Source: Escherichia coli (GTDB lineage Bacteria > Pseudomonadota > Gammaproteobacteria > Enterobacterales > Enterobacteriaceae). Taken from it: 64,000 nucleotides of DNA. Positions 52,925 to 53,447 of the stretch are shown one piece after another. Below the pieces are notes generated by a model. The model saw only the letters and a program-made list of their open reading frames with translations, did no database searches and had not been told where the DNA came from. The position numbers were made by a program, and so were the translations under genes. The stretch is taken from assembly GCF_016903815.1 (NCBI RefSeq), contig NZ_CP069973.1; one strand, given 5' to 3'. The number at the start of each line of letters is the position of its first letter. Within the stretch, counting starts at the first letter, position 1.

Positions 52925-53065
52925 AAAACCCCGCCGGAGCGAGGTTTCGTCAGCCGCCCGCGGCTGGTAACCGCAAAGCACACTGTATTATGTCAACACA
53001 GAAAGTATACGTGTTCCGCGCAAAACGCGCAATTTCGGCACGAATTTTGACGTATTTAGTGCATA
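52925..53065 (-). ncRNA. istR: approximate location of the IstR antisense sRNA(s) controlling tisB
   Basis: Placed by synteny with tisAB and the LexA box; a GC-rich segment followed by a T-run on the minus strand near 52921-52945 could be its terminator. Coordinates are rough estimates. Confidence 0.3.
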
Positions 53066-53103
53066 GTTGAGTATCGATCACAGTTTGCGTTTTGTCCAAA
53101 TAT

Positions 53104-53123
53104 TACTGTTTATTTATACAGCA
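53104..53123. promoter_or_regulatory. LexA (SOS) box with adjacent -10 element for tisAB
   Basis: TACTGTTTATTTATACAGCA fits CTGT-N8-ACAG; TATAAT at 53141-53146. Confidence 0.6.
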
Positions 53124-53247
53124 AACTTCTATAATATCACTGTACGCAATGTGTTATGCGGGGGCCGCATCGTTACCCGGCGCACTAAGTCCTGGCTGAA
53201 ACGGGTGGTGCCGTCAGCGCCTTAACCCCGCGTGAGCACACTGTGTT

Positions 53248-53361
53248 ATGTCAACGAGCACAACGTTTCTCCTTGAGATACCGCGTGCACAACAGCTGGC
53301 AACAGGCAGCGGAAAGGTACGTCAGCTGGCAGTGCTCCTGAACCACAGGAGACGCGTATGA
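53248..53361 (+). other. tisA: tisA upstream reading frame (37 codons) of the tisAB transcript
   Basis: ORF MSTSTTFLLEIPRAQQLATGSGKVRQLAVLLNHRRRV overlapping the tisB start by 4 nt. Confidence 0.55.
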
Positions 53362-53447
53362 GCCTGGTGGATATCGCCATTCTTATCCTCAAACTCATTG
53401 TTGCAGCACTGCAACTGCTTGATGCTGTTCTGAAATACCTGAAGTAA
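53358..53447 (+). CDS. tisB: SOS-induced type I toxin TisB (29 aa)
   Basis: Hand translation gives MSLVDIAILILKLIVAALQLLDAVLKYLK-stop; below the 60-aa cutoff of the supplied ORF track. Confidence 0.85.
   Translation: MSLVDIAILILKLIVAALQLLDAVLKYLK

Follow-up and report, generated by a model that had tools for sequence, protein, structure and literature searches.

Can a complete, SOS-controlled toxin–antitoxin system lie unlisted in a stretch of Escherichia coli chromosome? An interval of the 64,000-nt stretch analyzed here (the window; contig NZ_CP069973.1) had been predicted from its letters to hold the known type I toxin locus tisAB, with a LexA box overlapping the promoter, a tisA frame preceding a 29-aa toxin that an open reading frame (ORF) track with a 60-aa cutoff misses, and, as an expectation, the antisense RNA IstR divergently upstream. 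We find a complete istR–tisB type I toxin–antitoxin module at window positions 52923..53500, which the alignment proposed with that prediction shows to be collinear with the module of K-12 MG1655 and ~99% identical to it. The locus is an allele of K-12 istR–tisB, an already known system that has been characterized in depth since 2004. We regard it as close to certain that the window carries a complete and apparently functional copy of the chromosomal E. coli istR–tisB module, with expression, LexA binding, processing and toxicity transferred from K-12.

Identity, neighborhood and homologs of the locus

The genes and RNAs of the region, in order along the window, are:

50901..52589, minus strand: ilvB
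on the ilvB side, minus strand: ivbL, leader peptide gene
52923..53052, minus strand: IstR, match to Rfam RF01400 (145 bits vs. gathering threshold 45, E = 1.4e-31, model positions 1-130 of 130)
52923..52995, minus strand: IstR-1, constitutive antitoxin sRNA of 73 nt (coordinate transfer from K-12 b4616; within the RF01400 match)
52923..53062, minus strand: IstR-2, 140 nt, sharing its 3′ end with IstR-1 (K-12 annotation transfer)
52923..52947, minus strand: IstR intrinsic terminator, GC stem and six-U run (Rfam terminal helix, terminator scan at 52940-52928, fold)
53358..53447, plus strand: tisB coding sequence, 29-aa membrane toxin MSLVDIAILILKLIVAALQLLDAVLKYLK (NCBIfam/Pfam; strain 7/2 annotation WP_000060506.1)
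53721..54911, plus strand: emrD

The module is flanked by ivbL and ilvB on one side and by ysdE and emrD on the other, in the order ilvB-ivbL-istR-tisB-ysdE-emrD. [quoted passage not shown] The surrounding 1121 bp (52600..53720) are matched in 5420/5426 complete E. coli genomes and are 100% identical to E. coli strain 7/2 (NZ_CP023820.1), in which ivbL, tisB, ysdE and emrD are annotated. Alignment with K-12 MG1655 (coordinate offset +51304) shows zero indels within the module, and the K-12 record annotates istR-1, istR-2, tisB and ysdE, leaving tisA unannotated. With tisB annotated here in both K-12 and strain 7/2, the locus is indeed a known one. In the neighboring ysdE (53571..53645, minus strand) the start codon is ATA here and ATG in K-12 (53643, T vs. 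C); an in-frame TTG lies immediately upstream of the ATA, and PGAP still annotates ysdE in the identical strain 7/2.

TisB is identifiable by family models as well as by position. The gene at 53358..53447 is listed only once the ORF cutoff is lowered to 20 aa, in agreement with the claim that a 60-aa track misses it. Its product scores 69.9 bits against NCBIfam NF011340 (cutoff 53) and 61.5 bits against TIGR04459 (cutoff 38), both curated equivalog models, and 37.6 bits against Pfam PF13939 (cutoff 25). The 29 codons run without frameshift or stop, and the peptide carries all the conserved polar or charged positions of the family (D5, K/R12, Q19, D22 and K/R26) along with its invariant residues (D5, L9-I10-L11, Q19, L20-L21 and D22-A23-V24-L25). 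It matches the K-12 peptide at 28/29 residues, the difference being Asn2>Ser. Expression of TisB causes membrane depolarisation and toxicity in K-12 experiments (PMC11997105, PMC9040746), properties that we transfer to the window allele, and its contribution to persistence is condition-dependent (PMC11997105).

The antitoxin RNA, which had only been expected, is present at full length. A covariance search of the 64-kb window, also proposed beforehand, returned IstR as the sole non-tRNA Rfam family to reach threshold, divergently upstream of tisB and inside the predicted interval, whose start at 52925 falls 2 nt inside the IstR 3′ end. The IstR 5′ end lies 42 nt from the LexA box, and the RNA has no overlap with tisB. 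At 52954 and 52959 the sequence differs from K-12, and each change replaces U-A by U-G in the Rfam consensus stem without loss of pairing. Sub-threshold Rfam matches to P6, STnc310, naRNA4 and RsmY were rejected, since they fall on the ilvB-leader terminator, a REP element and the IstR terminator. A functional persistence determinant and its sRNA escape a 60-aa ORF filter here, so annotation needs small-ORF and ncRNA layers (Rfam, NCBIfam small-protein models). The locus matters only in this respect, as an annotation point concerning a clinically relevant persistence determinant.

Homologs of TisB are found across Enterobacteriaceae. The search took a single genome for each species and used a degenerate back-translation of TisB residues 12-26, a pattern that itself imposes K/R12, Q19, D/E22 and K/R26, so that only D5 and peptide length are independent of it. 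The scan gave 63 loci, 62 of them from Enterobacteriaceae; the remaining match, in a Chlorobiota metagenome-assembled genome (MAG), was discarded as a chance match. Host genera include Escherichia, Salmonella, Citrobacter, Enterobacter, Leclercia, Lelliottia, Raoultella, Trabulsiella, Siccibacter and others, as well as the Klebsiella oxytoca group. TisB is exactly 29 aa long in 62/62 enterobacterial loci, and D5, Q19 and D22 occur in all of them. For comparison of leaders we used 57 sequences, namely the window and the 56 other loci with an exact LexA core. The distance from LexA box to tisB ATG falls into length classes of about 220, about 251 and 270-286 nt, which track genus groups, the longest being that of Klebsiella oxytoca/Raoultella.

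Within E. coli the module is common but not universal. Neither internal probe matches in around 1070 of 5426 genomes, implying that ~20% lack the module; in these, identity stops at ~52870 and resumes at ~53560, with ~140 nt of unrelated sequence between. The published absence of tisB/istR from phylogroup B2 (PMC9040746) accounts for this ~20%, which is that known deletion and not a new one. Downstream of the tisB terminator the window has a REP-like palindrome (53516..53548), and in a subset of E. coli genomes (e.g., 18-4, L005) it is replaced by an unrelated ~170-bp GC-rich repeat element.

The tisB transcript and its pairing with IstR

Elements of the tisB mRNA, and the IstR segment that pairs with it, are:

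53142..53500, plus strand: primary tisB ("tisAB") transcript, +1 to +359 (+1 anchored by published mutant positions)
53142..53182, plus strand: 5′ segment +1..+41, which keeps the primary transcript translationally inert and is removed to give the active +42 mRNA (folds; function from PMC5668327, PMC7708055)
53191..53218, plus strand: 5′ stem-loop +50..+64 with partner +73..+77, S1-binding pseudoknot of the standby site (positions from PMC7708055)
53235..53255, plus strand: IstR-1 target and single-stranded ribosome standby region, +94..+114 (repeat, covariation)
52977..52997, minus strand: IstR antisense segment, complementary to tisB mRNA (21-nt direct repeat with 53235..53255)
53248..53361, plus strand: "tisA" frame, 37 codons, open in Escherichia, overlapping the tisB start via ATGA (ORF listing)
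53335..53351, plus strand: hairpin CUCCUG/CAGGAG sequestering the Shine–Dalgarno sequence (SD), AGGAG at 53347..53351 (+1 and +42 folds)
53467..53500, plus strand: tisB intrinsic terminator, 12-bp stem, GUAA loop, U-rich tail (folds)

Mutant positions published for the +42 mRNA fix the transcript on the window: CC50/51 correspond to 53191/2, G54 C55 U56 G57 to 53195-8 and C74 A75 G76 C77 to 53215-8 (PMC7708055). The reported transcript length is 359 nt (PMC2577331), and a transcript of this length from 53142 ends at 53500, just past the 12-bp terminator hairpin (53467..53494). Folding of the +1 RNA predicts pairing of nt 1-22 with nt ~85-105, the standby and IstR target region, and in the fold of the +42 RNA that region is unpaired in the centroid structure. 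The pseudoknot region is identical in sequence to K-12, and its stem CCUG/CGGG is invariant in the 57 leaders. The SD hairpin forms in both the +1 and the +42 folds; its five core pairs are likewise invariant in the 57 leaders, so covariation neither supports nor contradicts them. The terminator departs from K-12 at 53474 (A-U to G·U in the stem), at 53480 (in the loop) and at 53495, which interrupts the U tract (UUUU to UUUC). The published scheme has an inert primary transcript and an active +42 form, the latter equipped with a standby site and an S1-binding pseudoknot; IstR-1 blocks the standby site and triggers RNase III cleavage (PMC5668327, PMC7708055). Two stretches of the tisB mRNA that are reported to be antisense to the uxaA and dinD mRNAs (PMC2577331), 53167..53186 (20 nt) and 53412..53427 (16 nt), are present unchanged.

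The predicted folds of the window RNA reproduce this scheme. Darfeuille et al. in 2007 reportedly placed the cleavage at position +106, which we take to correspond to window 53247.

Pairing between IstR and the leader is evident as a repeat in the DNA. On the plus strand, 52977..52997 and 53235..53255 form a 21-nt direct repeat with 20/21 positions identical, and since IstR is transcribed from the opposite strand, the repeat amounts to 21 nt of IstR/mRNA complementarity (+94..+114) in which the single difference is a G·U pair. The pairing site lies ~100 nt upstream of the hairpin-sequestered SD. With the annotated IstR-1 5′ end (52995) the duplex has 19 bp, and IstR-2 covers all 21. The K-12 complementarity is 22 nt (PMC2577331); the 22nd base here is G (53256) and would pair as G·U with IstR-2.

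Comparison across species bears on whether this complementarity is maintained. We judged pairing by exact 21-nt complementarity and by cross-species covariation. An IstR-like target copy occurs 118-129 nt beyond the LexA box in 53 loci. At target position 15, IstR and target copies both carry T in 15 of these loci and both carry C in 35, with 3 mismatched. A double change was also seen once at position 6 and once at position 16, and the remaining differences are mostly G·U. This covariation offers direct comparative support for the predicted IstR/tisB pairing. Small peptide, same-locus sRNA and co-varying complementarity together place the locus among type I toxin–antitoxin systems, the toxicity itself being carried over from K-12. 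A prediction with RNA.duplexfold, full-length IstR-1 against the whole mRNA, was dropped: because it ignores intramolecular structure, the duplex was over-extended and not clearly better than shuffles (−73.5 vs. a shuffle minimum of −72.0 kcal/mol). In one Klebsiella michiganensis locus, an IstR-like copy was not found within 400 nt upstream of the LexA box.

These elements would fit the mechanism described for K-12 (PMC7708055, PMC5668327, PMC2577331, PMC9040746). In undamaged cells LexA would repress tisB transcription, and any primary transcript would be inert, with its first 41 nt folded onto the standby region. DNA damage would lead to LexA cleavage, accumulation of tisB mRNA and processing to the +42 form, whose single-stranded standby site and S1-binding pseudoknot would let 30S subunits load and reach the sequestered ribosome binding site (RBS). 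Constitutive IstR-1 would pair with the standby region, block loading and trigger RNase III cleavage, so that toxin would be made only when the mRNA exceeds IstR-1. TisB in the inner membrane would then collapse proton motive force and ATP, producing dormant, drug-tolerant cells.

The LexA operator, the tisA frame and alternative readings

Between the divergent RNAs lie the following control sites:

53070..53098, minus strand: IstR-2 promoter-like site, TGGACA, 17-nt spacer, GATACT (promoter scan, consensus match only)
53104..53123, no strand: LexA operator (SOS box) TACTGTTTATTTATACAGCA, with core CTGT-N8-ACAG at 53106..53121 (consensus match, position conserved)
53130..53135, plus strand: tisB promoter −10 hexamer TATAAT (read from sequence)

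The LexA box was predicted to overlap the promoter, and it does so: the 20-mer spans −38..−19 relative to the literature-anchored +1 (53142), ending 6 bp upstream of TATAAT, which in turn ends 6 nt before +1. It is a 20-bp palindrome near TACTG(TA)5CAGTA with CTG/CAG half-sites intact. A simple promoter scan reported neither the tisB nor the IstR-1 promoter, which it missed because of their weak −35 elements; both were placed by homology and literature. The putative −10 of IstR-2 ends 8 nt upstream of the K-12-mapped IstR-2 5′ end (53062). LexA binding and damage-inducible tisB transcription have been shown in K-12 and Salmonella (PMC2577331, PMC8072944, PMC9040746). With the TisB models, the Rfam match to IstR and the identity to K-12, the LexA box, present on alignment, makes this an SOS-controlled type I toxin locus as originally proposed. 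In E. coli H106 (NZ_CP144364.1, 1252..2472) an ISL3-family ISKox3 lies between istR and tisB; homology breaks at ~53110 of the window, inside the LexA box/−35 region, and the insertion would uncouple tisB from its operator.

Taken by itself, the palindromic core CTGTTTATTTATACAG (53106..53121) might be a chance palindrome and not an operator. The bare 16-nt pattern CTGT-N8-ACAG is expected 0.64 times per 64-kb window and occurs at least once in 46/100 shuffles, which is not beyond chance, so we judged significance by the 20-mer in its place. Against the LexA consensus TACTGTATATATATACAGTA, the 20-mer TACTGTTTATTTATACAGCA has 3 mismatches (17/20) with an exact core; it is the sole site within 3 mismatches of the consensus in the 64 kb, and 0/100 shuffles give one. 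The site is moreover base-for-base homologous to the K-12 tisB operator, which is reported to have the lowest heterology index of the LexA regulon and slow LexA dissociation (PMC9040746), and an exact core recurs at the same place, 217-286 nt upstream of the tisB ATG, in 56/62 other enterobacterial loci (of the remaining 6/62, four have a one-base core variant at the same place and two have too little upstream sequence). A chance origin is thus next to inconceivable. A different concern is that the module is a decaying or deregulated copy in which Ser2 or changes in operator or terminator have inactivated the toxin or its control. In favor of decay, the locus departs from K-12 at 16 positions in 1.1 kb, among them one base of the LexA 20-mer, one that alters a tisB codon non-synonymously and three in the terminator, and the module is dispensable, being absent from ~20% of complete E. 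coli genomes (PMC9040746). But Ser2 is the common E. coli allele and the Asn2 of K-12 the minority one (a 61-nt probe centred on the Ser2 codon matches 3288/4358 E. coli genomes exactly), and Ser is the commonest residue 2 of TisB in other genera. The 29 codons are uninterrupted with every invariant family residue in place, the LexA core and 17/20 consensus positions are intact, and the stem changes preserve pairing through wobble pairs. We consider decay very improbable and retain the reading of an intact, apparently functional module. Its only unusual feature is the base at LexA-box position 19 (53122), C in the window vs. T in K-12 (...CAGTA): a probe for the C allele is exact in at most 122/4343 E. 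coli genomes, and T is kept in 55/57 species-level leaders. There is an outside chance that this rare T>C, in what is reportedly the tightest LexA operator, measurably loosens repression of tisB in the lineage; given the low heterology index and slow dissociation of the K-12 operator, a change in its flank could slightly do so. If true, the DNA-damage threshold for TisB-dependent dormancy would be lower or its stochastic frequency higher, the C allele would be a natural "persistence-tuning" allele, and the break in the terminator U tract could further contribute to a change in mRNA levels. For natural variation in SOS-dependent dormancy, this strain-specific operator variant offers a minor lead.

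The tisA frame raises the further possibility of a true two-gene operon, in which a 37-aa tisA product is translated and contributes to function. A 37-codon frame does precede tisB at 53248..53361, as predicted; what does not hold up is its conservation as a gene, in start codon or in frame. For translation speak the open frame itself, its initial ATG, an ATGA overlap with tisB of the kind that can indicate translational coupling, and its preservation, identical in K-12 and kept in three other Escherichia-lineage genomes. Yet the frame has zero NCBIfam or Pfam matches, is annotated neither in the K-12 RefSeq record nor in the PGAP record of the identical strain 7/2, and has no SD-like sequence upstream of its ATG (GAGCACACTGTGTTATG). 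Of the 57 leaders, 16 have ATG at this codon and the other 41 have ACG or ACA. Length differences between the leader classes are not multiples of 3, indels break the frame, and a translation begun at the homologous position departs within a few residues in Citrobacter and Salmonella and is unrelated outside Escherichia; one E. coli-labelled genome has tisA frameshifted. Furthermore, the T of the tisA ATG is target position 15, and its T/C change co-varies with IstR, which demonstrates selection on RNA pairing. A translated, functional tisA is accordingly a highly unlikely reading, and the comparative pattern indicates that tisA is regulatory leader RNA carrying the IstR target, not a conserved gene, the name "tisAB" being historical.

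Other features of the window and comparison with known systems

The 64-kb window contains several features outside the module. At 24724..25491 a 768-bp IS1 copy stands in place of 5313 bp of the near-identical strain 7/2; among the sequence lost are part of the SPI-1-like eip translocon cluster, a gene of the IpaD/SipD family, the regulator eilA and, from air/eaeX, a giant gene for an inverse-autotransporter adhesin, ~1 kb at the 3′ end. The window air ORF (25487..35851, minus strand) is truncated to 3454 aa. Within air/eaeX, tandem repeats of ~291 bp form a long array at 26583..32417; they share about 84-87% identity and presumably encode repeated Ig-like domains. The tRNA-Sec gene selC (9403..9493, Rfam 83.8 bits) is directly followed by a tyrosine integrase and a selC-integrated island (9797..~19000), whose cargo comprises a TPR protein, a LacI-regulator/MFS/GH31 sugar cluster, ykgR and an IS1 (18460..18963). 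A second toxin–antitoxin pair (37471..38131, plus strand), a RelE/ParE-family toxin gene overlapping an HTH antitoxin gene, was assigned from the annotation of strain 7/2, with which the window shares 99.996% identity at this place.

The istR–tisB module shares features with several other type I systems. In zor–orz and shoB–ohsC, translation likewise depends on standby, the antitoxin pairs well upstream of an RBS that is sequestered, and 5′ pseudoknots are predicted (PMC7708055), but these modules are not SOS-regulated and not homologous to it. dinQ–agrB, the other LexA-controlled type I toxin–antitoxin system of E. coli, has the same architecture and regulatory logic: it too encodes a small membrane peptide under LexA repression, its constitutive sRNA is divergent and does not overlap, and its primary mRNA is inert while a 5′-processed form is active (PMC5668327). 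Its peptide and sRNA are, however, non-homologous, it occupies another chromosomal site, and it has no match in the window.

The closest known system is K-12 MG1655 istR–tisB (formerly ysdAB/tisAB; b4616 and b4618, NC_000913.3 3853118..3853642). The two loci agree in flanking genes, in how the parts are ordered and oriented, in every spacing between elements and in the mRNA leader from +1 to +114, and the tisA frame and the IstR antisense segment are identical. The 1121 bp differ by 16 single-base changes. On the IstR side, two A>G changes lie in stems, a third change lies in the IstR-2 hairpin loop, and three more lie just past the 3′ end; one further change lies between the IstR-1 −10 and start, and one at +115, just past the IstR-1 duplex. 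TisB (Asn2>Ser) and LexA position 19 (T>C) account for one each and the tisB terminator for three, and the three changes outside the module fall in the REP element, the intergenic spacer and the ysdE start codon. The mRNA segment +1..+114 is free of all 16, and the changes located in stems preserve pairing by going from A-U/U-A to G·U/U·G.
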